A stretch of 64,000 nt of DNA from Betaproteobacteria bacterium TMED22 (GTDB taxonomy: Bacteria; Pseudomonadota; Gammaproteobacteria; Burkholderiales; Eutrophovitaceae): the NCBI GenBank assembly GCA_002167745.1, contig NHCB01000003.1, positions 16,377 through 80,376 on the forward strand, given 5' to 3'. Below, piece after piece: positions 2,530 to 63,839 of this stretch. The notes beneath the pieces were generated by a model. That model saw nothing but the letters and a program-made list of their open reading frames with translations. It was not told the DNA's origin and searched no databases. The translations under genes were made by a program, and so were the position numbers. The first letter of the stretch is position 1, and each line of letters begins with the position of its first letter.

Positions 2530-4155
2530 GTGAGTATGTTTAAGAACAAACGAAACGCATTATTATTTATTTTGAGTTGCTTTACGCTTGTTTTTCCAAT
2601 AGTTGGTAAGGCGCTTGATCGGACGGATATCTCTGGTTTGGCGTCTGAGACAGCGATGGAGCGATTGAGGGCGATAGAGGAGATCGCAGCAATAGGGGAT
2701 GCAGATGCTCTTAGGCTTTTGGAGAATCTTCAAAAGAGCGAAGTTATGGTTACGGATGCCGGCCAAATTGTTTTAGAAAATGAGGACTGGGATGTTATTG
2801 ATGCTATCACCTTAGAGGTACTTGATCCGCAGCCGGATATGTACGACACGGTTATCGTAAACAATCGGATGCGGTCACAGCTTGAGCGTGCAGTCGGAGT
2901 ATTGCAGTTGTTATCAGAGGATAGAGAGATACGGCTTACTTCGGCTAAGTCGTTACAAGACAATTTATCGCCATCGTTACTGAGTATTTTAAATAAGGCG
3001 CTTGCTCAGGAAACAGATCAAGAAATCATAAAGATTCTAAAAGAGAGTCAGTCAGTTATTTTATTAGATGCTGCTGATGCTCAACAGCGTATAGACGCAG
3101 TTAATTATTTAAACTCAAGCAATGAACGACGTATTCGTGAATTACTTGCGGCAAAGTTAGAAAAAAATGAGTTGGGTGTATATCAGGAAGATTCTGCCGA
3201 GGTTCGCGTTGCCATCGAGTCTGCTGTTGCTTCGATTGATCGAAAGCTTACATTTATTGACTATTTTGGTCGTTTATTTAGCGGTCTATCACTAGGTAGT
3301 ATTTTATTACTAGCCGCTATGGGGCTTGCCATCACATATGGGCTGCTGGGTGTTATTAACCTTGCTCATGGCGAGATGTTGATGATTGGTGCCTATGCAA
3401 CGTATGTTACCCAGCAACTATTTGTTGCCTATTTGCCGAATCATTTTGATTTTTATGTTCTAGCGGCTATTCCAATGGCATTTCTTTGCTCAGCGATTAT
3501 TGGGGTGATACTTGAGCGCACTGTGATTCGTTGGTTGTACGGTCGCCCGCTTGAAACGTTATTAGCCACCTGGGGTATCAGTCTTTTTCTTATCCAATTG
3601 GTCCGGCAGATCTTTGGAGCACAAAACGTTGAGGTATCAAATCCTAATTGGTTGTCGGGTGGAGTTGAATTATGGAATGTTGTTATGCCGTTTAATCGGA
3701 TAGCGATCATTGTCTTTGCTGTTTTAGTGCTTGTTGGGATTTGGTTGGTTATTAGTCAGACCAGATTAGGTTTGTTTATTCGTAGTGTGACACAGAATAG
3801 AAGTATGGCGGCGTGTGTTGGCGTGAATACTGCGAAAGTTGACATGCTTGCCTTCGGACTAGGGTCCGGGATCGCGGGCTTGGCGGGGGTTGCTCTATCT
3901 CAAATAGGAAACGTAGGTCCAGATCTTGGCCAGGCTTACATAATTGATTCATTTATGGTGGTAGTTCTCGGTGGTGTTGGCCAGTTAGCCGGAACGGTCT
4001 ATGCGGCTCTTGGTCTCGGAGCTTTCTCTAAGCTCATTGAGCCAGGCGTTGGCGCAGTTCTTACCAAGATAATTATCCTTGTATTTATCATCGCTGTTAT
4101 TCAAAAACGTCCTCAGGGTTTGTTCGCCCTCAAAGGCCGCTTTGTGGAGGACTAA
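2530..4155 (+). CDS. urtB: Urea ABC transporter permease UrtB with a ~245-aa N-terminal extension
   Basis: The C-terminal ~295 aa is a LivH-type permease (LAAMGLAITYGLLGVINLAHGE...). Starts with GTG at 2530; an alternative ATG is at 2536. Lies in the urtABCDE context. Confidence 0.9.
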   Translation: MSMFKNKRNALLFILSCFTLVFPIVGKALDRTDISGLASETAMERLRAIEEIAAIGDADALRLLENLQKSEVMVTDAGQIVLENEDWDVIDAITLEVLDPQPDMYDTVIVNNRMRSQLERAVGVLQLLSEDREIRLTSAKSLQDNLSPSLLSILNKALAQETDQEIIKILKESQSVILLDAADAQQRIDAVNYLNSSNERRIRELLAAKLEKNELGVYQEDSAEVRVAIESAVASIDRKLTFIDYFGRLFSGLSLGSILLLAAMGLAITYGLLGVINLAHGEMLMIGAYATYVTQQLFVAYLPNHFDFYVLAAIPMAFLCSAIIGVILERTVIRWLYGRPLETLLATWGISLFLIQLVRQIFGAQNVEVSNPNWLSGGVELWNVVMPFNRIAIIVFAVLVLVGIWLVISQTRLGLFIRSVTQNRSMAACVGVNTAKVDMLAFGLGSGIAGLAGVALSQIGNVGPDLGQAYIIDSFMVVVLGGVGQLAGTVYAALGLGAFSKLIEPGVGAVLTKIIILVFIIAVIQKRPQGLFALKGRFVED

Positions 4156-5271
4156 ATGCAGTACCAACCGAAAATTGAACCGTTATTCTCAACGCTTGGT
4201 TGGATTGGGTTGATAACATTCGCTCTGCTCACCCTTATCGTTGTTCCTTCTCTATACCTGGCAGTGCCAGACGGCAGTAGTTTCCATATATCTTCTTATA
4301 CAGTGACATTAATTGGCAAGATTATGTGTTATTGCATCGTTGCCGTGGCAATGAACTTGATTTGGGGCTACGCGGGGATATTGTCTTTAGGACAGGGATT
4401 ATTTTTTGCGTTAGGAGGATATTGTTTTGGTATGTATCTGATGCGACAAATTGGTCGTGATGGTCAGTACCAAAGTCTTTTGCCTGACTTTATGGTTTTT
4501 CTTGATTGGAAAGAATACCCGTTGCATTGGATGGGTACTGAGAGCTTTTTATGGGCAATAATTCTGGTGTTGTTAGTGCCCGGTGTCTTAGCTTTTGTTT
4601 TTGGATATTTTGCGTTCCGATCTAGAATTAAGGGAGTTTATTTTTCTATCATTACTCAAGCCCTTACATTCGCTTTTATGTTGTTATTCTTTCGTAACGA
4701 AACCGGGTTTGGTGGGAATAATGGATTCACTGATTTTAAGCGGATTCTTGGGTACTCCATTACCGATCCGACCATGAGAGCGGCGTTATTCGGGCTCAGT
4801 GCCTTCTTCCTGTTGCTCGTGTTAGTCCTGTCTCGGGTATTAATTAAGTCTAAGTTTGGACGAATATTGACAGCAGTTCGAGATTCCGAGTCACGTTTGA
4901 TGTTCTGTGGTTATGACCCGATTCGCTACAAACTCTTCATTTGGACCTTGTCCGCCGTCATCTGTGGGGTCGCTGGAGCGCTATATGTGCCTCAAGTTGG
5001 TATTATTAATCCGAGTGAGATGTCCCCAGCAAATTCAATTGAGATTGCGGTGTGGGTAGCGGTCGGAGGGAGAGGGACTATTGTCGGACCGATAATTGGG
5101 GCGGCGTCTGTTAACGGAGCGAAGAGCTTCTTTACGCAAGCTTTTCCCGAATATTGGTTGTTTTTTCTGGGGTTACTTTTTATTTTTGTAACCTTATGTT
5201 TGCCCTTCGGTATTGTAGGCTTAATAAATAAGTTGAAACGTAAATTCACAAAATCAGGAATAGAAAGTTAA
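4156..5271 (+). CDS. urtC: Urea ABC transporter permease UrtC
   Basis: LivM-type permease (NLIWGYAGILSLGQGLFFALGGY). The ATG directly abuts the urtB stop. Confidence 0.9.
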   Translation: MQYQPKIEPLFSTLGWIGLITFALLTLIVVPSLYLAVPDGSSFHISSYTVTLIGKIMCYCIVAVAMNLIWGYAGILSLGQGLFFALGGYCFGMYLMRQIGRDGQYQSLLPDFMVFLDWKEYPLHWMGTESFLWAIILVLLVPGVLAFVFGYFAFRSRIKGVYFSIITQALTFAFMLLFFRNETGFGGNNGFTDFKRILGYSITDPTMRAALFGLSAFFLLLVLVLSRVLIKSKFGRILTAVRDSESRLMFCGYDPIRYKLFIWTLSAVICGVAGALYVPQVGIINPSEMSPANSIEIAVWVAVGGRGTIVGPIIGAASVNGAKSFFTQAFPEYWLFFLGLLFIFVTLCLPFGIVGLINKLKRKFTKSGIES

Positions 5272-5275
5272 TCAC

Positions 5276-6094
5276 ATGCAAGAAATGTTAGGCATTAAAA
5301 ACCCCATTGGGCGAAGTACGATCGGCCACGTCACGAAACCAGAGGTAGATATATCGCATGGACCAATCTTATATCTTGAAGATATTTCAGTGAGTTTCGA
5401 TGGCTTTAAAGCGCTCAATGGTCTGTGTTTAACGGTTGATGCGGGTGAGCTCAGATGTATTATCGGACCTAATGGTGCTGGAAAAACTACGATGATGGAC
5501 GTGATAACTGGCAAGACAAAGCCTGATTCGGGAACCGTATTTTTTGGTCAGTCAATTGATTTAAGTCGGATGAATGAGCCGCAAATTGCCTCGGTGGGAA
5601 TTGGCCGTAAATTCCAAAAACCCACTGTGTTCGAGAACCACACAGTCTTTGAAAATTTAGAGTTAGCAATGAAGTACGATAAGAGTGTTTTGAAAAATCT
5701 CTTTTCGAAGAGGAAGCAATCACAAATCCAGAAGATTACCGAAACGATGGAAATCATAGATTTAGTGGATCAGGCAGATCGTCTGGCGGGTCTCCTGTCT
5801 CATGGTCAGAAGCAATGGCTTGAAATTGGCATGTTACTGATGCAAGAGCCGCAACTCTTATTATTAGATGAGCCTGTTGCTGGAATGACTGATGATGAAA
5901 CTGAGAAAACAGCAAAGTTGTTTAAATCTCTTGCCGGTGATCGCTCGCTAGTTGTAGTAGAGCATGATATGGAATTTGTTGCAGAGATCGCATCGACAGT
6001 TACCGTTTTGCATGAAGGCTCAGTTTTAGCTGAAGGTTGTATGGAAGATGTTCATTCGAACGAGCGTGTGATTGAAGTGTATCTGGGGCGTTAG
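5276..6094 (+). CDS. urtD: Urea ABC transporter ATP-binding protein UrtD
   Basis: Walker A GPNGAGKTT, signature LSHGQKQWLEIG, Walker B LLLLDEP. LivG-like with an N-terminal extension. Confidence 0.9.
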   Translation: MQEMLGIKNPIGRSTIGHVTKPEVDISHGPILYLEDISVSFDGFKALNGLCLTVDAGELRCIIGPNGAGKTTMMDVITGKTKPDSGTVFFGQSIDLSRMNEPQIASVGIGRKFQKPTVFENHTVFENLELAMKYDKSVLKNLFSKRKQSQIQKITETMEIIDLVDQADRLAGLLSHGQKQWLEIGMLLMQEPQLLLLDEPVAGMTDDETEKTAKLFKSLAGDRSLVVVEHDMEFVAEIASTVTVLHEGSVLAEGCMEDVHSNERVIEVYLGR

Positions 6095-6097
6095 ATC

Positions 6098-6796
6098 ATG
6101 TTAGAAGTAAAAGATATTAATCAGTTTTATGGCTCTAGCCACACGTTGCGTAATGTGAGTTTTACCGCGCCAGCTGGCGCTGTTACAACGGTGTTAGGCC
6201 GAAATGGTGTTGGAAAAACAACGTTACTTAAGTGTTTGATGGGTGTTTTGGAAACTGAGAGTGGAACGATATCCATTAATGGGGTAGATCTGACAGCTCA
6301 GCCTTCTCACGCGCGTGCTCGGTCCGGAGTTGGTTATGTGCCTCAGGGTCGTGAGATTTTTTCTCGATTAACGGTGGAAGAGAATTTATTAATGGGGCTT
6401 GCGACGAAGTCTGGGGGAGCGGTATCTGATTTGCCTCACGAAATATTTATTATGTTTCCCGTTTTGAAAGAGATGCTTCATCGCAGAGGAGGTGATTTAT
6501 CTGGAGGTCAACAGCAGCAGTTAGCAATTGGTCGTGCACTCGCCATGTCTCCCAGCCTCCTAGTTCTTGATGAACCGACTGAGGGAATTCAACCATCGAT
6601 TATTAAAGATATAGGTAATGCAATTAGGTCTCTTGCAGCACGTGGTGATATGGCTATTTTATTGGTTGAGCAATACTACGACTTCGCGAAAGATTTAGCA
6701 GATCATTACCTTGTTTTACAGCGGGGTGAAGTGATTAAATCAGGTCTAGGTGCATCTATGGACGATGATAATGTTCGGCAATATCTCGCGGTATGA
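6098..6796 (+). CDS. urtE: Urea ABC transporter ATP-binding protein UrtE
   Basis: Walker A GRNGVGKTT, signature LSGGQQQQLAIGRAL, Walker B LLVLDEP. LivF-like. Confidence 0.9.
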   Translation: MLEVKDINQFYGSSHTLRNVSFTAPAGAVTTVLGRNGVGKTTLLKCLMGVLETESGTISINGVDLTAQPSHARARSGVGYVPQGREIFSRLTVEENLLMGLATKSGGAVSDLPHEIFIMFPVLKEMLHRRGGDLSGGQQQQLAIGRALAMSPSLLVLDEPTEGIQPSIIKDIGNAIRSLAARGDMAILLVEQYYDFAKDLADHYLVLQRGEVIKSGLGASMDDDNVRQYLAV

Positions 6797-7629
6797 GATT
6801 ATTCGATAGTCCATCATATTCCTGGCTCGGAGAATTAGATCTTGGTTTCGATTTGCGGGATGATAAAACCGTTATGTCTCGTAATCGGCATGAAGGGCCA
6901 CTTGTTGTCCAAAAAGCCTTATATCCTGAGGGTCCACAAATATGTCAGGTTTTAATCATTCATCCGCCAGGCGGCATAGCGGGCGGTGATGAATTAAGGA
7001 TTAATTGCGACGTCGAAAAAGGCGCGTGTGTTCAGCTCATTAATCCTGGTGCAACTAAATGGTACGAGAGTTTCGAGCGTCCCTCCAAACAACTTATTTC
7101 GCTAAATTTGAAGGCGGATAGCATCTGTGAGTGGCTACCACAAGAAAATATTATTTTTAATAAATGTTTAGTTGACATCGGAACGGACATCAATATCGAA
7201 GCTGGTGGTATTTATGTTGGTTGGGATTTTTTCTCCTTAGGTCGTCATATCGACCATGCTCCATTTATTGAAGGTCGATTAAAGCAAAAGACTAGGATCT
7301 TAATTGATGGATTGCCGGTATTCATAGAGCGGACGTTATTCAGCCCTGATCAGTTATTGGATGGGCCTGGAATATTGGATGGATTTTCTAGCTTCGGAAC
7401 GATGTTTATTGTCGGGTTGCAGCAAGATGAATCTCTGATTGATGATTTGAGGGAAATCGCCGCTGAGGAGACGCACTGCGCCCTAACATGGCTGAAGGAC
7501 CTGCTTGTAGCGCGATGGGTGGGAGAAGATATTGAACATGGACGACAAGTGTTTACACGCCTATGGGCACGCTTGCGTTCGGTGTATTCGTCGCATGCTG
7601 CGGTAAAGCCCAGAATTTGGAATACTTAA
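6793..7629 (+). CDS. ureD: Urease accessory protein UreD
   Basis: IIHPPGGIAGGDEL motif. ATGA overlap with the urtE stop. Lies immediately upstream of ureABC. Confidence 0.85.
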   Translation: MRLFDSPSYSWLGELDLGFDLRDDKTVMSRNRHEGPLVVQKALYPEGPQICQVLIIHPPGGIAGGDELRINCDVEKGACVQLINPGATKWYESFERPSKQLISLNLKADSICEWLPQENIIFNKCLVDIGTDINIEAGGIYVGWDFFSLGRHIDHAPFIEGRLKQKTRILIDGLPVFIERTLFSPDQLLDGPGILDGFSSFGTMFIVGLQQDESLIDDLREIAAEETHCALTWLKDLLVARWVGEDIEHGRQVFTRLWARLRSVYSSHAAVKPRIWNT

Positions 7630-7658
7630 TATTCGAAATAATTGGATGAGAGGATGTT

Positions 7659-7961
7659 ATGGATTTGACACCAAGAGAGAAAGATAAGTTATTGATTTTT
7701 GCAGCGAGTTTGTTGGCAGAGAGACGTCTTAAAAAAGGACTGCTTCTCAATTATCCTGAAGCTATAGCGTATATAAGTGCTGAAATTATGGAAGGTGCGA
7801 GAGAGGGTAGGACAGTAGCGGATTTGATGTCGTATGGTGCAACTTTGTTGAGGCGCGACCAAGTAATGGATGGGATTGCCGAGATGATTCCAGAAATTCA
7901 AGTCGAGGCGACATTTCCAGATGGTACGAAGCTAGTGACTGTTCACCAACCGATTGTTTGA
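7659..7961 (+). CDS. ureA: Urease gamma subunit
   Basis: [57 protein letters not shown] is near-canonical UreA. Confidence 0.96.
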
Positions 7962-7971
7962 GGAGTTTAAA

Positions 7972-8280
7972 GTGATACCAGGAGAAATTGTGACGGAAGA
8001 TGGAGACATCGAAATCAACTCAAATAGGACTTTACTGACAGTCGTTGTTTGTAATGCGGGAGATCGACCGATACAGGTGGGTTCGCATTATCACTTCTAT
8101 GAGACTAACGAGGCGCTTGAATTCGATCGTGAACAGACTAAAGGATTTCGCCTAAATGTCGCGGCGGGTACGGCTGTGCGATTTGAGCCTGGGCAAAAGC
8201 GAACTATTGAACTGGTGGCGATTGATGGTGATCGACGAGTGTTTGGGTTTAGAGGGTTAATAATGGGAGACGTCACATGA
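7972..8280 (+). CDS. ureB: Urease beta subunit
   Basis: VIPGEI...INSNR...[11 protein letters not shown] motifs. I start at GTG 7972 (canonical MIPGE start, GAGGAG at 7957..7962) rather than the track TTG at 7954, which overlaps the ureA stop. Confidence 0.9.
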
Positions 8281-9983
8281 CCAACAAGATCGATCGGCGT
8301 GCTTACGCTGAGATGTTTGGCCCAACGGTGGGTGATCGCGTGCGCTTGGCCGATACTGAGCTGTGGATTGAGGTTGAGGAAGACAAAACGATTCCTGGAG
8401 AAGAAGTTAAATTTGGCGGTGGGAAAGTCATTCGGGATGGTATGGGTCAAAGTCAAAGGCCAGCTCATGCAGTGCCTGATACCGTCATTACAAATGCTTT
8501 AATTGTGGATCACAGCGGAATTATTAAAGCTGATATTGCAATTAAGGATGGTCGTATTGCTGGCATTGGTAAGGCGGGTAATCCGGATGTGCAACCTGGT
8601 GTCGATATTATTATTGGGGCTGCAACGGAAATTATTGCCGGAGAGGGTTCCATCGTCACAGCTGGAGGAATAGACGCACATATTCATTTCATCTGTCCTC
8701 AGCAAATTGAAGAGGCGCTCTCTTCAGGAATTACAACTATGCTCGGCGGTGGGACCGGTCCTGCAACAGGAACAAATGCGACGACTTGTACGCCCGGTCC
8801 TTGGCATATATCCCGTATGCTTGAATCGGCTGATGCGTTTCCTATGAATTTGGGTTTCATGGGCAAAGGTAATGCAAGTTTGCCATTGCCGCTCGAGGAG
8901 CAAGTGGCGGCCGGTGCTATGGGTTTAAAATTGCATGAGGACTGGGGTACTACGCCAGCTGCTATTGATAATTGTTTGACCGTGGCGGAATCTGCAGATA
9001 TTCAAGTTGCAATTCACACAGACACTTTGAACGAATCTGGATTTGTGGAGGATACGCTCGCGGCGTTTAAAGATCGAGTAATTCACACTTACCATACGGA
9101 AGGTGCTGGAGGAGGACATGCACCAGACATCATAAAAGCATGTGGTTTTTCGAACGTTTTGCCGTCTTCTACGAATCCCACAAGGCCTTACACGGTCAAT
9201 ACAATAGATGAACATTTAGATATGTTGATGGTATGCCACCATCTAGACTCGTCAATAGCTGAGGATGTGGCTTTTGCGGAATCGAGAATCCGTCGCGAAA
9301 CAATTGCAGCTGAAGACGTATTGCACGATATCGGTGCCTTCAGCATGATAGCTAGTGATTCGCAAGCGATGGGTCGCGTGGGCGAAGTGATTTCTCGTAC
9401 CTGGCAGACTGCTCATAAAATGAAGGTTCAGCGAGGGCCTCTTCCAGAGGATTCTGACCGCTCTGACAATTATCGTGTTAAGCGCTATGTGGCGAAATAT
9501 ACAATCAACCCTGCTATTACGCATGGTATGGCTAATGAGGTTGGGTCGATAGAAGTAGGGAAGCTCGCTGACATCGTGCTTTGGAGACCCGCCTTTTTCG
9601 GCGTCAAACCCTCCATGATCGTAAAAGGGGGAGTGATTGCTATGTCTCTTATGGGAGATCCAAATGCATCCATTCCGACACCTCAGCCAGTCCATTACCG
9701 GTATATGTTTGGTGCTTATGGTGGTTCGTTGACTCAATCATCAGTAACCTTTACTTCCCAAGCGGCTATTGAATCGAATGTGCGGGTCAATTTAGGCTTA
9801 CAAAAGCAGCTTGTGGCTGTAAGCAATACGAGAACCATCTCCAAGTCGTCGATGATTCTGAATACGCTTCAGCCAAAAATAGAGGTAGATCCGCAGAATT
9901 ATCATGTTTATGCAGATGGTAAGTTGTTAACTTGCGAGCCAGCTACTGAGTTGCCCATGGCTCAGCGGTATTTCTTGTTTTAA
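8277..9983 (+). CDS. ureC: Urease alpha subunit
   Basis: [47 protein letters not shown] and MVCHHLD are diagnostic nickel-site motifs. Confidence 0.97.
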
Positions 9984-12732: not shown

Positions 12733-14409
12733 ATGAAGACTGATATAGAGATTGCCCAACAGGCAGAATTAAAACGTATCACGGAGATTGCCATTGAGCG
12801 GTTGGGTATTCCCGAGGAGCATATTGAGCCTTACGGCCATTACAAGGCCAAATTGACAAATGAGTTTGTGGGTAGTTTAGGGGGTAAAGCCGATGGCAAG
12901 TTGATTTTGGTTACTGCTATCAGTCCTACTCCGGCGGGCGAGGGTAAGACTACAACAACAGTGGGTCTTGGAGATGCGCTCAATTCAATCGGTAAGAATG
13001 CGCTTATTTGTCTTAGGGAGCCAAGTTTAGGCCCTGTTTTTGGCATGAAAGGTGGGGCTGCCGGTGGGGGATTGGCGCAAATAGTGCCCATGGAAGATAT
13101 CAACCTTCATTTTACGGGTGATTTCAATGCTATTCAGCTGGCTAATAATCTATTGGCTGCAATGCTTGATAATCATATTCATCATGGTAATGCGTTAAGC
13201 ATTGATGTGCGTCGCATAGCTTGGCGACGTGTTGTTGACATGAACGATCGAGCGCTTCGCTCGATCGTTGTTTCTCTTGGGGGACCAGGCAATGGTTACC
13301 CACGTGACGATGGTTTCGATATTGTTGTGGCATCTGAAGTTATGGCTATTTTATGTTTGGCCGACTCAATGGAGGATCTCAAGGAGCGGTTGGGCCGCAT
13401 TGTTGTGGCATATACACGGGATAAAGTGCCGGTCTTAGCTTCTGAGCTAGACGCTCACGGGGCGATGGCCGTGTTACTTAAGGATGCGGTCAAGCCGAAT
13501 TTAGTGCAAACGCTGGAGAATAATCCCGCGATTATTCACGGGGGACCGTTCGCGAATATTGCCCATGGCTGTAATTCGGTTATAGCCACCCGAACATCAC
13601 TGAAACTTGCAGATTATGTCGTTACAGAGGCCGGATTTGGCGCCGATTTAGGCGCAGAAAAATTTATTGATATCAAGTGCAGGAAGTCTGGATTAAGGCC
13701 TGATGTTGTTGTACTTGTTGCGACGATTAGAGCTCTAAAATTCCATGGTGGACAGTCTTTATCTGAGCTTAATCATGAAAATGTATCAGCGTTAGAAAGG
13801 GGCTTCGCAAACCTCGAGCGTCACGTCAATAATATGAGGAATGTTTTTAACCTTCCATGTGTAGTCTCTATCAATCACTTTACTCATGACACTGAGATGG
13901 AAATCGAGCGTCTACAGGAGCTTTGTAATGTGCTTGGTGTTTCAGTGGTTGTCGCGAAACATTGGGCTGAGGGCGGTGCGGGCGCGCAAGCACTGGCACA
14001 TAAAGTTATAGAGCTGATTGATCAGGAGACTGCAGACCTTACTTTTGCTTATGAAGATAAGGACAGTTTGGAACAAAAAATTGAATCAGTTGCCAAGAAA
14101 ATCTATGGTGCTTCTGAAGTAAAACTGGATACGAGGGCAAAAAATAGACTTGTTGAACTAGAAAAAGAAGGTCACGGTAATCTTCCTGTATGTATTGCAA
14201 AAACGCAATATTCGTTTTCTAGCGACCCGAGCTTAAAGGGTGCGCCGATCGGACATACGCTAACTGTCCGTGAGATTCGATTGTCCGCAGGTGCCGGGTT
14301 TGTTGTGGTGGTATGCGGTGATATTATGACAATGCCTGGTTTGCCAAAAGTGCCAGCTGCTAACCGTATTGATCTGAGCCCAGATGGCAAAGTTGTTGGA
14401 TTGTTCTAG
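12733..14409 (+). CDS. fhs: Formate--tetrahydrofolate ligase
   Basis: [32 protein letters not shown] and [13 protein letters not shown] motifs. Confidence 0.96.
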
Positions 14410-14451
14410 TGCTAAATATTTTCGCGCGTAACGGCGCAGGATATCTCTGAT

Positions 14452-16224
14452 ATGAAGTCGCAAACCATAACGGCCCTTACTCAGTCTGAGGGATTGAGCA
14501 GTAATCTTAGAGACATCACGTGGGTTGAGACAAATATACCTTGTCAGGTGGCTTGCCCTGCTGGTACGGATATTCCTGGCTACATAGAAGCCATTAATCA
14601 TGGGAGACTAGACGAGGCCTATACAATCAACTTTAGAGATAATATATTTCCAGGGGTTCTTGGCCGAGTTTGTGCTCGACCCTGCGAAGATGCGTGTCGG
14701 CACGGTCGGCCTAGTAACGGAGACTCGGTCGCGATTTGTTCGCTAAAGCGATCATCGCATGACTTGGGTGGCGTTCTTAGAACGTTGCCTAAAATAAAAC
14801 CTTCCAGCGGTCATCGTATTGCAGTTATTGGGGCTGGGGTTGCGGGGCTTGCAACTGCACGCGACCTTGCTCTTGACGGACATAAAGTAGTCGTTTATGA
14901 AAAACATCATCGTCCAGGCGGGATGATGGTGCAAGGAATACCGTCATTTCGACTGCCTAGAGATGTGATTGAGTTGGAAATTGACCAAGTCTTGTCTTTA
15001 GGTATTGACCTAAAATGCGGTGTGTCTATTGGTGATGATGAGAGTCTCGATAGTCTGGTTGAGTCTTATGATGCGGTCGTATTAGCTGCTGGCACTTTAA
15101 GCGGTAATCGTTTACATGTGCCAGGAGATGATCTACCTGGGATTGAACATGGTCTTCGCTTTCTGATGGAGGTGAACGAGCAAGGGCGAAGACATATAGG
15201 GTCGAAAGTTACGGTAATCGGTGGTGGGTACACGGCGATGGATTGCGCTCGAACGGCTGTGCGGTTGGGAGCAGATACAACTGTCTATTATCGTCGTGGT
15301 CCACAGGATATGGTTGTTTTGCCTGGAGAGGTCCAAGAATTATTAAATGAGAATGGAACAATGAAATACTTTCAGGCACCTCATCAATTTTTCGGTGAGG
15401 TATCTGTACAACAAGCTGAATTTCTCAAAACTGTTATCAACGTTGAAGACGGGAGACCAGTGGTACAGACTGAAGAAGGTAGTTCAATTGATATTGATAC
15501 TGACAGCGTGATATTGGCTACCGGACAAATAGCAGAAACCCACTGGGTGTCGGGTCAAATTGGTAAACTGATTATGCATGGTCAATCAAGAGTTTTGGTC
15601 GAGGACGAATTTAATACGCGTCATCCAAAAGTCTTTGTGGCAGGAGATTTTGCTACTGGTGCAACGACTCTAATTGATGCGATTGCCCATGGACGCAAGG
15701 CCGCTTTGCGAGTAACCCGATTCTTAACTAGAAGTAGTCTTTCTGAACATAAAGTTAAAATTGAGGAAAAACGGTTTGGTACTGATTTCACGGGAGGCCA
15801 GTTTCCTAGAACTCAGGAAATGAACGTGATACCCATTCAAGCCGTGCCTGTTATTGATACGAAGCAGCGAGTAGATAACAAAGAGGTAGAACTTGGTTAT
15901 GATCAAGCGTCAACAGATCAAGCCGCAAAACGTTGTTATTTGTGTCATTACAAATTTGAGATCGATAATAGGCTCTGCGTGCTGTGTGATGAATGCATCA
16001 AGGTGAAGCCCACCGAAGGTTGCATTCTGCCTGTTTCAGACTTAGAACTTAGTGATGACGGGTCAGTCGTCAAATATAAACAGTTACAGAAAGGAAAGTC
16101 GGACTCTCTTTACTACAATCAATTATGGATTGATCAGGATAAATGTATCCGTTGCGGTCAATGTGAGGCGGTGTGTCCGGTCGGGGCAATATCGATTCAA
16201 AAGGTGAGTTTCGTGAAAGTTTAG
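14452..16224 (+). CDS. GltD-like NAD(P)H-dependent FAD/Fe-S oxidoreductase with a C-terminal 2x[4Fe-4S] ferredoxin domain
   Basis: N-terminal CQVACPAGTDIPGYI...GRVCARPCEDACRHG (GltD Fe-S region), two Rossmann motifs (IAVIGAGVAGL, VTVIGGGYTAMD), and C-terminal CYLCH...CVLCDECIKVKP...CIRCGQCEAVCPVGAI. Confidence 0.8.
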   Translation: MKSQTITALTQSEGLSSNLRDITWVETNIPCQVACPAGTDIPGYIEAINHGRLDEAYTINFRDNIFPGVLGRVCARPCEDACRHGRPSNGDSVAICSLKRSSHDLGGVLRTLPKIKPSSGHRIAVIGAGVAGLATARDLALDGHKVVVYEKHHRPGGMMVQGIPSFRLPRDVIELEIDQVLSLGIDLKCGVSIGDDESLDSLVESYDAVVLAAGTLSGNRLHVPGDDLPGIEHGLRFLMEVNEQGRRHIGSKVTVIGGGYTAMDCARTAVRLGADTTVYYRRGPQDMVVLPGEVQELLNENGTMKYFQAPHQFFGEVSVQQAEFLKTVINVEDGRPVVQTEEGSSIDIDTDSVILATGQIAETHWVSGQIGKLIMHGQSRVLVEDEFNTRHPKVFVAGDFATGATTLIDAIAHGRKAALRVTRFLTRSSLSEHKVKIEEKRFGTDFTGGQFPRTQEMNVIPIQAVPVIDTKQRVDNKEVELGYDQASTDQAAKRCYLCHYKFEIDNRLCVLCDECIKVKPTEGCILPVSDLELSDDGSVVKYKQLQKGKSDSLYYNQLWIDQDKCIRCGQCEAVCPVGAISIQKVSFVKV

Positions 16225-53735: not shown

Positions 53736-55262
53736 ATGAAAGAGTTACGCTTAATTCTTGGCGATCAACTCAATCTTAACCACTCTTGGTATCAGGTGAT
53801 TGATCCTAGTGTGATTTATCTCATGATGGAAGTTGCGTCTGAAGCTGAACGCTCGCCTCAGCACGCTCAAAAAATACTGGGTACGTTTGCGGCGATGCGT
53901 GCGTTTTCTGAATCTCTAACCTCTCTTGGGCATCGTGTTCATTATGTGACTATCAGCGCACCTGATAACCAGCAGAGTTTTTCCAGCAATGTTTCTTACT
54001 TTTGTCAAAAGTTTGCTGTCTCTTCATTTGTATGGCAAGAACCAGATTCTTGGTATGTTGATCAAGAGTTGAAGAAGTTTTTTAACTCATCTTCATTAGA
54101 TGGTGGAGATACCACTACTGAGCATTTTCTTGAGCCGCGTGACGGTCTTTCTTTGTTCATGAAGAGCCGTTCGATTTGGAAGATGGAAAATTGGTATCGA
54201 CACTTGAGGGTAAAGCATAACGTGTTGATGGAGGAGGGAAAGCCTATTGGTGGCGCTTGGAACTTCGATAAGGAGAATAGAAAGTCTTGGCGCGGAGACC
54301 CTTCGCCAGACTCAACATCAAGACCAACTCATGATCATTCCGCACTTTGGAGTGAAATCATTAAAGCAAAAGTTATAACGTTTGGAAATCCAGACGCCGC
54401 GGCATTTCAATGGCCTTCAAATCGTGATGAGTCTCTTGCGATGTTAAAGCGGTTTTGTGATACTAATTTACAATTTTTTGGTGACTATCAAGATGCGATG
54501 TCAGAGAAAAGCCAGACACTTTTCCATTCTTTGTTATCGTTTTCTTTGAACCTAAAAATGATTTCTCCGCATGAGGTACTCAACGCAGCCTTAGATGCGT
54601 TAGAGCCGGATCACAACAATATAGCAAGCGTTGAGGGATTTGTGCGTCAAGTACTCGGTTGGAGGGAGTATGTGAGAGGGATCTACTGGGCGAAAATGCC
54701 CGATTATTTATCAAGTAATGCATTTGCATTCTCTAATAAATTACCGGCTTGGTTTTGGACTGGAGAGGTTGACATGAAATGTATGAATGTAACCATAAAC
54801 CAGTCATTAGATACAGCTTACGCGCATCATATACAGCGCTTAATGATCGTAGGTAATTTTTCATTATTAGCCGGCCTTGATCCACGTGACGTACATTTAT
54901 GGTATCTCGGGATTTATATAGACGCTTTGGAGTGGGTTGAAGTGCCTAACACCATCGGCATGAGTCAATATGCGGACGGTGGAATACTCGCGACAAAGCC
55001 TTATGTGTCGAGTAGTGCGTACATCAACCGAATGAGCGATTATTGTAAATCTTGCAAGTATCAAAGAAAAGAAAAACACGGGGCGCAATCCTGTCCCTTT
55101 GATACGCTTTATTGGGATTTTTTGATTACGCACCGAAAAGCCTTTAAGAACAACCCGAGAATGGCTATGATGTTGAAGAATATAGATCGTAAAACTGAGA
55201 GTGAGATGGTCAAGATAGCGGCTCGAGCCCGTGACTTGCGCGACAATATTGAGAATTTGTAG
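53736..55262 (+). CDS. Cryptochrome/photolyase-family protein of the Fe-S bacterial (6-4) photolyase / CryPro (COG3046) type
   Basis: MKELRLILGDQL start, GWREYVRGIYW and HHIQRLMIVGNF. Cysteine set MKC ... C-x2-C-x12-C (YCKSCKYQRKEKHGAQSCPF) has the same spacing as the PhrB [4Fe-4S] ligands as I recall them. Confidence 0.85.
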   Translation: MKELRLILGDQLNLNHSWYQVIDPSVIYLMMEVASEAERSPQHAQKILGTFAAMRAFSESLTSLGHRVHYVTISAPDNQQSFSSNVSYFCQKFAVSSFVWQEPDSWYVDQELKKFFNSSSLDGGDTTTEHFLEPRDGLSLFMKSRSIWKMENWYRHLRVKHNVLMEEGKPIGGAWNFDKENRKSWRGDPSPDSTSRPTHDHSALWSEIIKAKVITFGNPDAAAFQWPSNRDESLAMLKRFCDTNLQFFGDYQDAMSEKSQTLFHSLLSFSLNLKMISPHEVLNAALDALEPDHNNIASVEGFVRQVLGWREYVRGIYWAKMPDYLSSNAFAFSNKLPAWFWTGEVDMKCMNVTINQSLDTAYAHHIQRLMIVGNFSLLAGLDPRDVHLWYLGIYIDALEWVEVPNTIGMSQYADGGILATKPYVSSSAYINRMSDYCKSCKYQRKEKHGAQSCPFDTLYWDFLITHRKAFKNNPRMAMMLKNIDRKTESEMVKIAARARDLRDNIENL

Positions 55263-55297: not shown

Positions 55298-55642
55298 ATG
55301 TTGATGAGAGATAGCATTGTATTGTTTATATTAGGGGTGATGCCATGGCAAGTTGCTGGCGCTTGGAGTAGTGATGTTCAAGCATCGGGAGTATTTACCG
55401 CAACCGTAGCGTATGAACATCAAAATACCTACAAGGTACACATATCACCTGTTTCCAACTTACGCTGGATCAAAACGGAGGAGTGTGATTTAGAGCTTCT
55501 TTTCGATGATGTGATCGTTGAAATTTATGAAAAGAATGGGCAACGTTTTGGTGCTGTATTCAAGCTAGTCCAGGAAGCCAGTGCAGAAGAAGGTCCACCA
55601 GAATGCATCGTGACTGGACTGTTTAGCGAGGAGCCCAAATAA
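55298..55642 (+). CDS. Small hypothetical secreted protein (114 aa)
   Basis: Signal-peptide-like N-terminus (IVLFILGVMPWQVAGA) and two Cys residues. No recognisable motifs. Call rests on ORF length and spacing only. Confidence 0.45.
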   Translation: MLMRDSIVLFILGVMPWQVAGAWSSDVQASGVFTATVAYEHQNTYKVHISPVSNLRWIKTEECDLELLFDDVIVEIYEKNGQRFGAVFKLVQEASAEEGPPECIVTGLFSEEPK

Positions 55643-55648
55643 CTTGGT

Positions 55649-56314
55649 TTAAATGGGGTCTGGTTGACCTTTGATTTTTTTGGTTAAATCTACACTGATG
55701 CTATGCTTGAGCAAGATGCTTAGCGTTGGGTTTCGTGAAAGCAGTTGATCTAGAGCCAGCCTGTCCCACGCTACCAGCTTTGTTGACGTCAAGGTGGTCG
55801 TCGTTGCAGAGGCCCTACTATCATTGATGAAAGACATTTCACCTATAAAAGTGCCATCTGATATGCGAGCGATTTCCTTAGCGTCTCGAGTAACCAAGAT
55901 AGAACCATTTTGTACGAAGTACAATTTTTCAGGCACCTCATTTTCCTTGGTCAAAGTCGTACTTGCGTCGACACTTTCCCAATGACTAGCGCGCATCAGC
56001 TTGGCAAATTCAACTGGGTTGAAGTTAGAAAAGCTTGTGTCCAGCATCTCTAATTCAATAGAGCTTAACGAAACTTGATATTTTTCCGTATAGATTTGGC
56101 AAACGCGCCAGACATTTATCAATGCAAAGATGATGCACCACGATAACGGAATCCAGTCTGGAGAGCCCATTGGGTGGAAGTAATTGTAAAAAATAGCGGC
56201 AACGGAGCTGAATATTGCGAGTATTCTAAGTACCACAATGTCCTTAACTACAAATGAAATGGCGGTAAGAAAAAAAGCGAGGTGACCCACAAAAGAAACG
56301 AGGTGTATGGACAT
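55649..56314 (-). CDS. Membrane protein with three N-terminal TM helices and a C-terminal cyclic-nucleotide-binding (CAP/PKA-type) domain
   Basis: Hydrophobic N-terminal ~75 aa, then LYFVQNGSILV...GTFIGEMSFINDSRASATTTT (phosphate-binding cassette G-E-...-R-A-S-A-T). Confidence 0.75.
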   Translation of the reverse strand: MSIHLVSFVGHLAFFLTAISFVVKDIVVLRILAIFSSVAAIFYNYFHPMGSPDWIPLSWCIIFALINVWRVCQIYTEKYQVSLSSIELEMLDTSFSNFNPVEFAKLMRASHWESVDASTTLTKENEVPEKLYFVQNGSILVTRDAKEIARISDGTFIGEMSFINDSRASATTTTLTSTKLVAWDRLALDQLLSRNPTLSILLKHSISVDLTKKIKGQPDPI

Positions 56315-58448: not shown

Positions 58449-59249
58449 TTAGAGATGAGAATACATTTGCGAAACGATATTTCTTCCCTCAGTCGTTTCC
58501 CTCAAAAGCATGATTTCTTCGCCGACAACAGGATATAGGCGTTCCCAAAAATATTGAACCCATTTTTGTCTGAAATCAGCGAGATCCTTAAATACGGTTG
58601 AATTGATTAAGTTTGCCTCTTTTGCTGACAAATAAAACTCCACCAGTTTGCGTTCATAGTTTTGATCTGACATCAGAGTTATGACTTGAATCGCACGAAC
58701 ATATTTGGCTATCTCACCGGCATCTGCAGAGGGATCTGGTGCTTTTCCGAAAAAGTCAGAGTATTCAATTGCTCGACTAACTAATTCGTAATTTATGCTC
58801 GAGTCTAAAAACGATATTTCTTGAATGAATTTAGTGCTTCGGAAGGATTTATAGGGCCATAGCGAGGAGTCGGTAAAGCTTTGATCTATGAAACGCGGTT
58901 TTTCATTATCTATTTTTTGATGATCGCCATTATCCTCGTTCAAAATACCCCTAATAACTCCTATATTACAAAATAGCACGGAAGCCATTAAGTTAATGAT
59001 CTGAGCTGGCCTGACCAAGCCGTCTCGGCATCGCATCGCATTAAGGATATGAAGCCCGACAATTGATGTGGAGAGTACGTGACTGAGTGAAAAATAGAGG
59101 CTACTTGACTTTGCGGATCGCGTGAACGAAATCAATGCCATATTTTTGATTACCTCTGATGCTGCAAGCACATCTGAATTCTGGTATTCAATGGACTCGG
59201 CTAGAACTTTTTCAAATTCTGCTTTAGCGATTCTCGTGAAATTAATCAT
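58449..59249 (-). CDS. Degenerate HD-superfamily paralogue (predicted catalytically inactive), translationally coupled to the upstream HD-GAF gene
   Basis: Aligns by eye along its length with the N-terminal half of the 59246..60592 product: LYFSLSHV vs LYHDVEHT, VLFCNIGVIRGIL vs LLFHDIGYVKNIL, TDSSLWPYKSFRSTKFIQE vs TDASLTPYHVERGKLFIHQ. The HD dyad is replaced by CN. ATGA overlap at 59246..59249. Confidence 0.65.
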   Translation of the reverse strand: MINFTRIAKAEFEKVLAESIEYQNSDVLAASEVIKNMALISFTRSAKSSSLYFSLSHVLSTSIVGLHILNAMRCRDGLVRPAQIINLMASVLFCNIGVIRGILNEDNGDHQKIDNEKPRFIDQSFTDSSLWPYKSFRSTKFIQEISFLDSSINYELVSRAIEYSDFFGKAPDPSADAGEIAKYVRAIQVITLMSDQNYERKLVEFYLSAKEANLINSTVFKDLADFRQKWVQYFWERLYPVVGEEIMLLRETTEGRNIVSQMYSHL

Positions 59250-60592
59250 TCGTGAAAGTCCTTACTTATATAAGTACTGACATGTTTCATGAGCTCTAAG
59301 ACGGACGGATCGAGTACTTCCGGGTCAGGGCTAAAAAACTCAAGAACCCATCGAACGCCCAAACCGTCACTTAATGGAAAAGCAAATGCGCCGCGGACTC
59401 CAATATCACTTGCTAATTTAGCACGAGGAAAATTAGGATCCACGGTGACATCGAAAACAGTTTGCAAAGCCCCTGTACTGCAAACTCTACCAGGCAGGCC
59501 TTCTCCAGATTTAAAAATATAACTCTCACTGATTTTTTTGAATTCCTTCAGCGCGTCATTAGTTTTGTCCGAGTACCAGATTTTCATTGACCGGAGCAGC
59601 GCATCATCATCATTTCGTTGGACAACATAGGCGTGACCTAACGGCCAATCTTTATACTTACATATTTTCTCTAAAATGAGGACAATCAATTCTTCAATTT
59701 TATATTTTCGCGCTTTTATTTTTGTGATTTCACTCAAAAGATCAATGCCACTTTTCTCAAGCTCCGCTTTGTGGCTTTGTGAAAATACGTGATAATTTAA
59801 ACTGGATATCCAGTCTCTGCCTTGATCACTAACTTTCAAATAGTCAAGTGCGGCGCCGATATGAGGTTTAACGAAATTAAGAAAAAATGCCGGATATCCG
59901 GCACGGAGATCATCAGGTGATTGATAACCCATCTTGCTTGCCGCCCCAGTTTCGCTGAATTCGTAAAATAATCTGGGTATCTTGATGTCATACATGGGGT
60001 CGGCGAGCTGACCTATTAAATCTGCAGATCCCACTAAGTTAGCTAGAGCATGAAATTTCTCTTCTTCTTTGCTGCTGGCCGCATTGCGATCAGGTATTGG
60101 GAACTGCGTATAGCTTATAAGGTTTTCGAGTAATGCTTTATCAATGTCTTTATGCCAATTTCTCTGATGTATGAAGAGTTTTCCCCGTTCAACGTGGTAG
60201 GGCGTTAAACTAGCGTCAGTATCGCCGGGTGCTAAAGTGCGGGTTTCACCATTGGAGTTAATGACTTGCGTCATGCCTTTGTCGCCAGCAAGAATATTTT
60301 TCACGTATCCGATATCGTGAAAGAGCAGGGCCAGGGTGAAGTGAAGCCAATCAGATGCGTCGAGTTCGCCTTCAAGAGTTTTTTTGCCTGCAAATATTTC
60401 CTGACCGCATAACGTGACCAGGGAGGTATGTTCGACGTCGTGATACAAGGCATCAGATCTACTAATAAGGTTCATTGATGTATGAACCGCATCAGCGATG
60501 ATGTTCAAATAGTCAGGCGGACTTTGAGGTAGTATCTCTTTTCTTTTTTGCTCTAGTCGAGAAATAAAGTCATTTTTGATGTTTATGAGCAT
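59246..60592 (-). CDS. HD-domain phosphohydrolase fused to a C-terminal GAF domain
   Basis: N-terminal YHDVEHTS ... LLFHDIGY ... GSADLIGQ (H..H / HD / D pattern). C-terminal GEGLPGRVCSTGALQTVFDVTVDPNFPRAKLASDIGVRGAFAFPL...VLEFFS is a typical GAF. Confidence 0.8.
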   Translation of the reverse strand: MLINIKNDFISRLEQKRKEILPQSPPDYLNIIADAVHTSMNLISRSDALYHDVEHTSLVTLCGQEIFAGKKTLEGELDASDWLHFTLALLFHDIGYVKNILAGDKGMTQVINSNGETRTLAPGDTDASLTPYHVERGKLFIHQRNWHKDIDKALLENLISYTQFPIPDRNAASSKEEEKFHALANLVGSADLIGQLADPMYDIKIPRLFYEFSETGAASKMGYQSPDDLRAGYPAFFLNFVKPHIGAALDYLKVSDQGRDWISSLNYHVFSQSHKAELEKSGIDLLSEITKIKARKYKIEELIVLILEKICKYKDWPLGHAYVVQRNDDDALLRSMKIWYSDKTNDALKEFKKISESYIFKSGEGLPGRVCSTGALQTVFDVTVDPNFPRAKLASDIGVRGAFAFPLSDGLGVRWVLEFFSPDPEVLDPSVLELMKHVSTYISKDFHE

Positions 60593-60601
60593 ATTGTTCG
60601 C

Positions 60602-60625
60602 TTATATTTTATATTGAAAATATAA
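60602..60625 (-). repeat. AT-only inverted repeat (9-bp arms, 6-nt spacer) between a GGGGAG motif and the HD-GAF start codon
   Basis: Plus strand: TTATATTTT (60602..60610) / ATATTG / AAAATATAA (60617..60625). RC of 60626..60631 is GGGGAG. The ATG of the HD-GAF gene is at 60592. Confidence 0.5.
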
Positions 60626-60725
60626 CTCCCCACATTTTCATGGTAACAGGTGAAATGACTTCCGGGGCATTAAGTTACACATGCCTAAAAACTTTTCGCT
60701 TCTACTTGGTGACGGGTAGGATTCA

Positions 60726-61571
60726 TCAAGGATTCCTTGATGAATAGCTCCCTTGTAAGCCGGATAATTGCTCATCAACAATTTTTTGTAACCCGAGGGA
60801 TCGCGCAGCCGGAGATGAGAACTTGGCATAGTGAGTTAAAAAGTAAATTCGTCCACCCCTTGATAGTAGACCCTCGGCAGAGATCGGATCTAGTTTTCTC
60901 CACTCATCGGCGAGTCTTTGTGTGAGGTTTTTTCCGAATTCGGGTATCGCGCTTGCAAGAATGTCGGCTTCTTGACAAATGACAGCTTGCCAAGCTGGAT
61001 GATTTAACTCAAATTCTGTGGTTTGGGCGCCTTTATGCAGTCTCGCATAGAGCGTTGGGTCGGTACTCCATATTATGCGTTTGATATCGTATATGTCCTT
61101 TTGATTGCATTTTGCAGCCTCTAATAAGGGGCGGATCAATCTAAAAGATCGTGATTCCAACTGGCAAGTCGAACTATTTCTGCTGCCATTATGGCCGGCA
61201 TCATGACCTGCCATTGCAACAAGTACGAGTATTTCTTCTCCGAGAAGAGATTTAGTGGTTATTTTGTTTATTTTTCGGTGCTCGAGCAATAAGGCGGTTA
61301 GGCTCTCCAGTACAATTGCGGTGTGTAATCTTGAGTGGTAGTTGGGCTCCTTATTTTTTCTTGCCATTTTTTTACACGAGTGTTCAACAAAATTAGAAAC
61401 AGCCAAGCCAGCAGCTATCAATCTGGACACTCTTTCGGTTTCTGGGTCAAATGGAGAGATGAGTCCGAGCCGCTCATAGCATGACCTGAAGGTTTCTCTC
61501 ATGCCGATCCAGTTGTCTGGCCAGTTGGATTGCAAGTCCCTAATTTTTTTTGATAAGACTTGTATCGACAT
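60726..61571 (-). CDS. HD-superfamily protein with a class I cyclic-nucleotide-phosphodiesterase-like motif set
   Basis: YHSRLHTAIVLESLTALL ... ILVLVAMAGHDAGHNGSRN ... QLES ... IIWSTD, compared with the eukaryotic PDE pattern YHNxxHAxDVxQ ... HDxxHxGxxN ... LENHH ... ATD. Start set to ATG 61571 (GGAG 8 nt upstream); the track start at 61610 adds 13 codons. Confidence 0.7.
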   Translation of the reverse strand: MSIQVLSKKIRDLQSNWPDNWIGMRETFRSCYERLGLISPFDPETERVSRLIAAGLAVSNFVEHSCKKMARKNKEPNYHSRLHTAIVLESLTALLLEHRKINKITTKSLLGEEILVLVAMAGHDAGHNGSRNSSTCQLESRSFRLIRPLLEAAKCNQKDIYDIKRIIWSTDPTLYARLHKGAQTTEFELNHPAWQAVICQEADILASAIPEFGKNLTQRLADEWRKLDPISAEGLLSRGGRIYFLTHYAKFSSPAARSLGLQKIVDEQLSGLQGSYSSRNP

Positions 61572-61752
61572 ATTCAATGCTCCAATAAACAGGTTGTTAT
61601 TTTGGCACATATCAGTCGATAAATAATCAGATTTTTTGATTACTTTTAGTATGTTCGTGTTTGCGCTTTATCTTCGCTGTGTTGTCCGCTGCTCTTGGTC
61701 TTTTCATTCGTTGTAACGTAAAATGTAATATTTAATTGATTGACTGATACCT

Positions 61753-63527: not shown

Positions 63528-63839
63528 TTGGCGGTTAGATTGGTGAAAAGAAGAAAGCAAAGCGTACGAGAAGCAACATTAGATTATCTTGCTAACCTGT
63601 ATTTAAATGATGAAAACATAGACAACTTTTTTACAAGTAAAACACTACGGGAATTTTGTTTTATCTATTGTGATGAACATGATCCAGAAGAACCCGTTAA
63701 CGCACTAAGACATTACAAAAAAAGCGGCATGATTGATTACACGTGTACCAATCGTAACAAAGGTGAATATCAATTAACGTTCATGAACATTTGTATTGAT
63801 ACGATTGAAGGTTTGGACGTCGAGCCAATTAAAATTTAG
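63528..63839 (+). CDS. Hypothetical protein (103 aa) in the AT-rich segment downstream of tRNA-Glu
   Basis: Only an ORF with a TTG start. No motif recognised. Composition is visibly more AT-rich than the flanking core genes. Confidence 0.3.
   Translation: MAVRLVKRRKQSVREATLDYLANLYLNDENIDNFFTSKTLREFCFIYCDEHDPEEPVNALRHYKKSGMIDYTCTNRNKGEYQLTFMNICIDTIEGLDVEPIKI

Follow-up and report, generated by a model that had tools for sequence, protein, structure and literature searches.

Two neighbouring and probably independent units in Betaproteobacteria bacterium TMED22: a compact homologue of class I cyclic-nucleotide phosphodiesterases, and an HD-GAF protein with a ligand-less paralogue

The animal GAF-PDEs, that is, the cyclic-nucleotide phosphodiesterases (PDEs) 2, 5, 6, 10 and 11, are dimers, and among the families devoted to cyclic di-GMP (c-di-GMP) inactive EAL, GGDEF and HD-GYP domains serve as receptors or regulators, usually fused in one protein. 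Class I PDEs are described in reviews through animal, fungal and protist enzymes, and the cAMP PDEs of bacteria are usually placed in classes II and III (PMC4222275, PMC5617230). The class I catalytic site comprises a set of metal ligands (His, His-Asp and Asp) and a catalytic His located in an H-x3-H motif (PMC13095499, PMC4222275). Here, we describe three consecutive genes, A, B and C, on the minus strand of a 64,000-nucleotide stretch of contig NHCB01000003.1 (positions 16,377 to 80,376) of Betaproteobacteria bacterium TMED22, hereafter called the window. An earlier note, made from the sequence of the window, had read them as three paralogues forming one second-messenger hydrolase system, an interpretation that is partly supported by our results. 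We consider, with a probability of about 0.6, that the region consists of two units, independent of each other and adjoining only in this Burkholderiales lineage: gene A, a PDE for cyclic nucleotide monophosphates (cNMPs), and the B-C pair, formed by an enzyme and its dead paralogue.

Gene A encodes a genuine, though divergent, homologue of the class I cyclic-nucleotide PDEs. Its family was collected by searching 1.84 billion representative proteins with a 17-sequence profile, which retrieved 635 relatives at E<=1e-3 and 322 at E<=1e-10, nearly all of them stand-alone proteins of 260-300 aa, and every source name found for them was ‘hypothetical protein’. When a profile of 82 sequences was compared with the Protein Data Bank (PDB), 149 sequences were matched at E<=0.01, and the 60 listed were all class I PDE catalytic domains. 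The best match among these 60 was PDE5 (E 1.4e-10, profile positions 74-229), with the YHNxxH, HDxxHxGxxN, TD and xAD motifs in register. Additionally, the Pfam model PDEase_I (PF00233) was matched at E<=0.01 by 77 of the 82 family members (best E 1.1e-12); the A protein of the window, used alone, gave weak PDB matches to PDE1B and PDE8A (E about 0.05). The AlphaFold (AF2) model of A has 14 helices, with a predicted local distance difference test score (pLDDT) of 93.1 and a predicted template-modelling score (pTM) of 0.92. The earlier note had suggested a Foldseek comparison, and the top 50 PDB matches of this model are all class I PDE catalytic domains (template-modelling score, TM, 0.5-0.68; 15-20% identity), including PDE10A, PDE1B, a rhodopsin-PDE, TcrPDEC1 and a yeast PDE. 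As modelled, the fold of A is a compacted version of the class I all-helical fold. Thus, the class I likeness first proposed from motifs is borne out by profile homology and predicted fold.

In comparison with described class I PDEs (PF00233; human PDE1-11, TcrPDEC1 and yeast Pde2), A shares the all-helical predicted fold, the series of H-x3-H, HDxxHxGxxN, E, TD and xAD motifs and all the Zn/Mg ligands together with the catalytic His. It differs from them in being bacterial, stand-alone and without regulatory domains, and in its size (~275 aa and 14 predicted helices, as opposed to ~330 aa and 16 helices). Residues H79, H83, H123, D124, H127, E139 and D203 are invariant in 82/82 family sequences, and Y78, N132, T170, R241 and F244 are nearly so (R241 in 80/82, F244 in 79/82). 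By alignment, H79 is the counterpart of the catalytic His of PDE4B, and H83, H123, D124 and D203 are the counterparts of its four Zn/Mg ligands (PMC13095499). Together, H79-x3-H83, H123-D124 and D203 make up the class I ligand set, and the PDE5 motifs are matched by them in the alignment; with 40 residues, the H83-D124 spacer is slightly above the 25-35 quoted for the class (PMC13095499, PMC4222275). The PROSITE pattern PS00126, H-D-[LIVMFY]-x-H-x-[AG]-x(2)-[NQ]-x-[LIVMFY] (PMC5617230), is fully matched by 33 of the 82 family members.

A carries a segment, GR241xxF244L, whose sequence pattern can be likened to the SQxxFI segment of PDE4 (PDE4D), which contains the purine-binding Gln and the Phe clamp. 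This likeness suggests that an Arg, R241, may stand in the place of the purine-binding Gln switch, which would be a further difference from class I PDEs. Two of the family matches are fused to other sequences, P0328 (377 aa) to a HECT ubiquitin-ligase domain and P0232 (321 aa) to part of an aminotransferase. Gene-calling artefacts are a possible cause, as is a eukaryotic or effector-like nature of the two proteins. A search of plasmids for A gave no match, and our literature search found no paper on bacterial PDEase_I proteins.

The neighbours of A-type genes belong, to a large extent, to cyclic-nucleotide signalling. A metagenome scan added 80 A-type loci, and the 94 A-type loci were grouped into 25 clusters at 60% identity, of which the 17 with at least 1.5 kb on both sides were used for context counts; class III cyclase and cNMP-binding domains were detected with ad hoc hidden Markov models (HMMs) on six-frame open reading frames (ORFs). 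A cNMP-binding ORF was found within 6 kb in 16/17 clusters, being directly adjacent and on the same strand in 10/17, and a class III cyclase was found in 7/17. Pfam cNMP_binding was confirmed for all of the 9 neighbours sampled (E 1e-17 to 1e-27). As a control, 22 loci without A (260 kb) contained 4 cyclase ORFs, from one locus type, and 4 cNMP-binding ORFs, two of which came from window-type loci ending before A; most of these ORFs were redundant. The A-type gene is followed by a CHASE2-cyclase 3 bp downstream at locus L011 and by a 408-aa cNMP-binding protein 10 bp downstream at L007, and at L032 it lies between a cNMP-binding patatin and a dCache-cyclase; at L030 it has neither a cyclase nor a cNMP-binding gene. 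At L051, the order cNMP-binding protein, A-type PDE, CHASE2-cyclase was confirmed with Pfam.

A same-strand cassette of a cNMP-binding protein of about 120-190 aa followed by an A-type PDE is recurrent (L051:1817-5429, and also L050, L045, L062, L083, L084 and L112) and carries a CHASE2-class III cyclase in some loci; this cassette looks like a self-contained cNMP signalling unit. The association extends to fusion in the metagenome protein P0246 (669 aa), which joins Response_reg, Guanylate_cyc and A-type PDE domains in this order. In this respect, P0246 resembles the combined adenylyl cyclase with PDE (CAPE) of basal plants, in which a class I-type PDE and a class III cyclase also share one polypeptide; however, CAPE is eukaryotic, has 1610 aa and bears its PDE at the N-terminus, so that the domain order of P0246 is the reverse (PMC5159850). 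Unlike both, the A protein of the window is unfused.

In the window, the sole cNMP receptor gene encodes a POPDC-like protein and travels with A throughout the lineage. The product (221 aa, encoded by 55649..56314 on the minus strand) has a hydrophobic N-terminal part and matches both Pfam POPDC1-3 (Popeye domain) and cNMP_binding, which gives this bacterial protein the architecture of the animal cAMP-binding Popeye proteins. We infer that it is the signalling partner of A. Among the ten large ORFs scanned in the rest of the window, no cyclase was found.

The paralogy claimed for the three genes holds for two of them. B and C share 24% identity over 245 residues (BLASTP, E 7e-19), and their profiles align with a probability of 99.85% (hhalign, E 1.6e-30). 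In contrast, A gave no significant BLASTP match to B or to C, and its 82-sequence profile was aligned to the B HD profile with a probability of 5% (E 0.0075), even though this alignment was collinear over 236 columns and kept the H-x3-H, HD and xAD motifs in register. As neither method gave a significant result, A was rejected as a paralogue of B and C.

B and C match the NCBIfam model NF045583, named ‘Npun_R2479 family HD domain-containing metalloprotein’, along its full length (B, 267 bits, residues 7-274 on model positions 9-274 of 275, E 1e-79; C, 117 bits, residues 31-265, E 1e-33). Both lie below its equivalog cut-off of 400 bits; B adds a GAF domain, and C is without the HD ligands. For homologues of the two, the precomputed Pfam assignment is PF28239, Npun_R2479. 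Relatives of B number more than 3,600, many of them fused to GAF (~450 aa) and many stand-alone (~280 aa), the latter named ‘metal-dependent phosphohydrolase’. The window comes from a marine betaproteobacterial genome assembled from a metagenome, and a protein 100% identical to B is recorded under the name Betaproteobacteria bacterium TMED22. Nine positions (Y50, H51, H55, H92, D93, D104, H133, R136 and D191) are invariant across 50 B-type and stand-alone sequences, and the HD-GYP signature HHExxDGxGYP was found in 0/50. We found no characterised member of the Npun_R2479 family and no solved structure, and our literature search yielded no paper for PF28239 or for ‘HD domain-containing metalloprotein’; it yielded one quoted database annotation, in which Npun_R2479 is a putative cGMP PDE (bioRxiv 10.1101/2021.04.09.436957).

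The reading of B as an HD/PDE-fold protein with a C-terminal GAF domain was upheld; its HD ligands are kept, and residues 299-443 match GAF_2 (E 4.8e-7). Of the HMM searches that the earlier note had suggested, the one for GAF thus gave a match above the gathering score, the one with PDEase_I left A just below it, and the Pfam HD models (including PF01966) gave no HD-family match for A, B or C at E<=1. The AF2 model of B (pLDDT 88) has GAF domains as its top Foldseek matches, and the sole non-GAF entry among the top 50 is PDE1B (E 1.1e-4, 330 columns). Similarly, the only non-GAF matches in a PDB profile search of B were to PDE10A, around the H...HD region (E 0.14); searching the PDB directly with the B and C sequences gave nothing relevant. 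B resembles the animal GAF-PDEs in that a long helix connects a PDE-fold catalytic domain, as modelled, with a GAF sensor. By contrast with their N-terminal tandem GAFs, it has a single C-terminal one, and it also differs in the absence of the NKFDE-type motif (0/40 among GAF-fused B homologues), in a catalytic domain of the Npun_R2479 family and in having a dead paralogue as its partner. The closest relatives of this GAF domain by identity include Nlh2, the nitrate sensor NreA and Lcd1, and the subtype is also present in GGDEF, PAS and response-regulator proteins.

Gene C, a paralogue of the catalytic half of B, has lost the metal ligands. The replacements reported earlier, YF for YH, CN for HD and IQ for AD, are found in each of the 21 C-type sequences, with identities as low as 38%. 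Across these sequences 40 columns are invariant and the length is constant near 266 aa. Measured against the closest relative, B has a ratio of nonsynonymous to synonymous substitution rates (dN/dS) of 0.057 and C one of 0.077 (about 0.06-0.09), values that are approximate owing to the high dS. C is, therefore, under strong purifying selection and clearly not decaying. In this, it is comparable to the degenerate second-messenger domains mentioned above, whose fold is kept under selection after the loss of catalytic residues and which are paired with active relatives, although C, unlike the inactive EAL, GGDEF and HD-GYP domains, is a separate gene overlapping that of its presumed active partner and belongs to another HD family.

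The two units differ in their distribution. When the C profile was run over species-representative genomes, 15 loci were obtained, all in aquatic metagenome-assembled genomes (MAGs) of Burkholderiales/Betaproteobacteria or Alphaproteobacteria/Rhodospirillaceae. In 14/14 of the loci that extend upstream of C, its start is reached or overlapped by the end of a B-type HD+GAF gene. B types with 48% and 35% identity are also directly followed by a second, ligand-less Npun_R2479 gene, the replacements of which differ from those of C. As even these distant B types have degenerate partners, the pairing of an active with a degenerate gene is old and general. The three genes stand together in the Burkholderiales set only (L009, L012, L017, L018, L020, L036, L037, L040 and L043), where the syntenic order is gltX, A, B, C, DUF3429, Aldedh, POPDC and DPRP (deoxyribodipyrimidine photolyase-related protein). 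At L010 and L041, A and its flanking genes (gltX ... A ... DUF3429-Aldedh-POPDC) are kept and B-C is absent, whereas all the alphaproteobacterial loci examined (L001-6, L015, L016, L019, L021-25, L034 and L035) have B-C and no A. Distant A-family genes have cNMP-binding or cyclase neighbours and never B-C. Since some alphaproteobacterial pairs (L001, L016, L019 and L021, from Rhodospirillaceae and other MAGs) are 73-78% identical in protein sequence to the window pair in unrelated contexts, and since the pair is missing from the syntenic site at L010 and L041, lateral transfer of B-C is suggested, or else its recent gain and loss.

Some further observations concern these loci. On the 162-kb scaffold of L009 (6969-9115), three genes are broken into fragments, namely B, C and the Aldedh gene next to them; because Aldedh is split too, assembly frameshifts are a more likely cause than pseudogene formation. 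A GAF-PAS-Guanylate_cyc gene lies two genes downstream of the B-C pair at L004:8872-11307, and on a Microvirga plasmid (L117:7342-8697) a stand-alone Npun_R2479 gene has an adenylate/guanylate cyclase gene at a distance of 1.5 kb. Both are weak hints of a cNMP link for the Npun_R2479 family. The metagenome contexts of stand-alone Npun_R2479 genes were uninformative, and those on two plasmids were mixed.

In the two-unit model that we favour, A would be a compact protein (~275 aa) without fusion partners, belonging to a divergent bacterial line of the class I (PDE1-11 type) PDEs and probably binding Zn/Mg through H83, H123, D124 and D203 and using H79 as the general acid. It would hydrolyse cAMP and/or cGMP, ending signals read by cNMP-binding proteins, and the likely reader at this locus would be the POPDC-like membrane protein 4.4 kb away. 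B would be an active metal-dependent phosphohydrolase with a PDE-like fold, from the Npun_R2479 HD family, whose C-terminal GAF domain may sense a small ligand, probably not a cyclic nucleotide. B and C are coupled in translation, and C, the dead paralogue, would be made in step with B, most likely forming a heteromer with it as a scaffold or regulatory (possibly substrate-binding) subunit. Regarding the substrate of B-C, the PDE-like features and the occasional nearby cyclase or cNMP-binding genes point to nucleotides, and the catabolic neighbours keep other chemistries possible.

Several observations weigh against this model. Taken alone, the A protein of the window scores 21.4 bits with PDEase_I, as opposed to a gathering score of 24.8, and covers profile positions 1-59 only; it also departs from PS00126 at two positions, 3 and 12, its sequence over this motif being HDAGHNGSRNSS. 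No evident equivalent of the purine-binding Gln of class I PDEs is seen in A, so its substrate could differ. The activity of A as a cNMP PDE is a prediction from homology, modelled fold and gene linkage, and the enrichment of cNMP genes beside A is indicative and has no statistic attached, as the controls are few, small and not independent. In the case of B, the PDE-like assignment depends on one Foldseek match, the weak profile matches (E 0.14) and the order of the motifs, and the neighbours of B-C are varied and mostly catabolic (Rieske oxygenases, TauD, the PEP_mutase family and DAO/GCV_T).

The proposal of the earlier note that A, B and C together make up one regulated second-messenger hydrolase system, or even a complex, now appears quite improbable. 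It is true that the window and no fewer than six related loci of Burkholderiales have the three genes side by side on one strand, and that all three genes have PDE-like folds or motifs. The note had held that the absence of the three genes from any other genome would speak against a single system; the triad does recur, but only within one Burkholderiales lineage in which the overall synteny is conserved, and the two units come apart outside it and at L010 and L041. Furthermore, the partners of A-family genes at other loci are cNMP-binding or cyclase genes, and A lies 133 bp from B, whereas B and C overlap by 4 bp. The idea that C is a decaying duplicate without function, to which the loss of all its canonical ligands could be ascribed, is hardly credible given its low dN/dS, its invariant columns, its fixed length near 266 aa and its strict linkage to B in 14/14 loci, and the pseudogene was rejected on the basis of dN/dS and conservation.

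Two other alternatives accept the separation and concern the substrates. The HD superfamily is chemically diverse, and B-C might act on something other than a cyclic nucleotide, be it another nucleotide or phosphoester or, if B were an HD-domain oxygenase, a catabolic intermediate, with the GAF domain sensing a metabolite. The variable catabolic neighbours would fit this possibility, as would the mere ‘metalloprotein’ of the NCBIfam name, the GAF domain without NKFDE and its relationship by identity to Nlh2 and NreA, and the Inositol_P, isochorismatase and NUDIX genes that adjoin stand-alone relatives of B. Nevertheless, the sole non-GAF structural match in the top 50 of B is a class I PDE, the sole non-GAF PDB profile matches are to PDE10A, the motif order H-x3-H, HD, TD, xAD is that of the PDE series, a cyclase or cNMP-binding gene lies within a few kb at some loci (L004-type, L019/L021 and the Microvirga plasmid) and Npun_R2479 is annotated as a putative cGMP PDE in a database (bioRxiv 10.1101/2021.04.09.436957), so we regard this alternative as somewhat unlikely. 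For A, a PDE-fold enzyme acting on a substrate other than 3',5'-cAMP or cGMP (e.g., a 2',3'-cNMP, a cyclic dinucleotide or a linear nucleotide) may be considered, given that specificity in other PDE classes is unreadable from sequence (PMC4222275). The apparent replacement of the Gln switch by a near-invariant Arg, judged from the sequence pattern, would also agree with such a substrate. So would a core that is presumably ~47 residues shorter than that of PDE4 (PDE4D2). The very strong linkage of the family to cNMP_binding (PF00027) proteins and class III cyclases, together with the cyclase fusion, makes this alternative unlikely.

The features of the region are collected in Table 1. ORFs are present for the three genes that the earlier note had named (60726..61610, 59246..60592 and 58449..59249), every motif it quoted was found in the translations, and the overlap between the stop of B and the start of C was confirmed in the junction. 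The ORF given here for A is the longest one, and 61571, corresponding to its M14, is the likely start, because the lengths of the homologues (273-281 aa) agree with it and a GGAG lies 8 nt upstream. A scan of the region for promoters and terminators returned site counts not above those of shuffled sequence and was not used as evidence, and the PADLOC models of anti-phage defence gave no match to A, B or C at E<=0.1.

Table 1. Coordinates of the features discussed, numbered from the first letter of the window.
Feature	Position	Strand	Description
Gene A	60726..61571	-	compact homologue of class I-type PDEs, 281 aa; aligned ligands H83, H123, D124, D203; catalytic His H79
A-B gap	60593..60725	-	133 bp; one weak promoter-like site
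Gene B	59246..60592	-	448-aa protein; Npun_R2479-type HD domain and C-terminal GAF domain
B residues 1-280	59753..60592	-	predicted HD/PDE-fold catalytic half; H51, H55, H92, D93, D191 invariant in 50 homologues
B residues 299-443	59264..59698	-	GAF domain (GAF_2), without the NKFDE cNMP-binding motif
B stop/C start overlap	59246..59249	-	ATGA; the B-C junction reads GAATGATT
Gene C	58449..59249	-	paralogue (266 aa) of the catalytic half of B, without the metal ligands; H57, C94, N95, Q188 at the four ligand positions
POPDC-like gene	55649..56314	-	membrane protein with cNMP-binding domain; 4.4 kb from A

Elsewhere in the window, the DPRP gene (53736..55262, plus strand) adjoins the POPDC-like gene, a position that is kept across the lineage. 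Beside it, in a position that is likewise conserved, lies an unassigned 114-aa ORF (55298..55642, plus strand) with a hydrophobic, signal-like start and no Pfam match. Another unassigned ORF, of 103 aa, is found at 63528..63839 (plus strand). The segments 2530..9983 and 12733..16224 have the look of ordinary chromosome, with genes for a branched-chain/urea-type ABC permease, a urease alpha subunit, a formate-tetrahydrofolate ligase and an Fe-S flavoprotein.

Going one step further, we tentatively propose, at somewhat less than even odds, that A-type proteins carry out degradation in a widespread and undescribed bacterial cNMP signalling cassette, where a small cNMP-binding protein accompanies the compact class I-type PDE, often together with a class III cyclase, the PDE possibly having Arg in place of the Gln switch and, separately, that B-C is the first bacterial heteromer of a PDE-fold enzyme and a pseudoenzyme under a GAF sensor. 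Several hundred bacterial sequence clusters named ‘hypothetical protein’ hold the full class I catalytic set and, because of this set and of the tight link to cNMP receptors and cyclases, the A family is a candidate for signal termination in the poorly studied cAMP/cGMP pathways of aquatic bacteria. A also offers a major drug-target fold in a small natural form (~275 aa), and the A family bears on the origin of the eukaryotic PDEs. If the proposal is true, A-types would be prokaryotic relatives of a PDE family thought of as eukaryotic. The B-C pair, for its part, would provide a clean case in which to ask why bacteria keep a dead copy of an enzyme strictly coupled to the active one.

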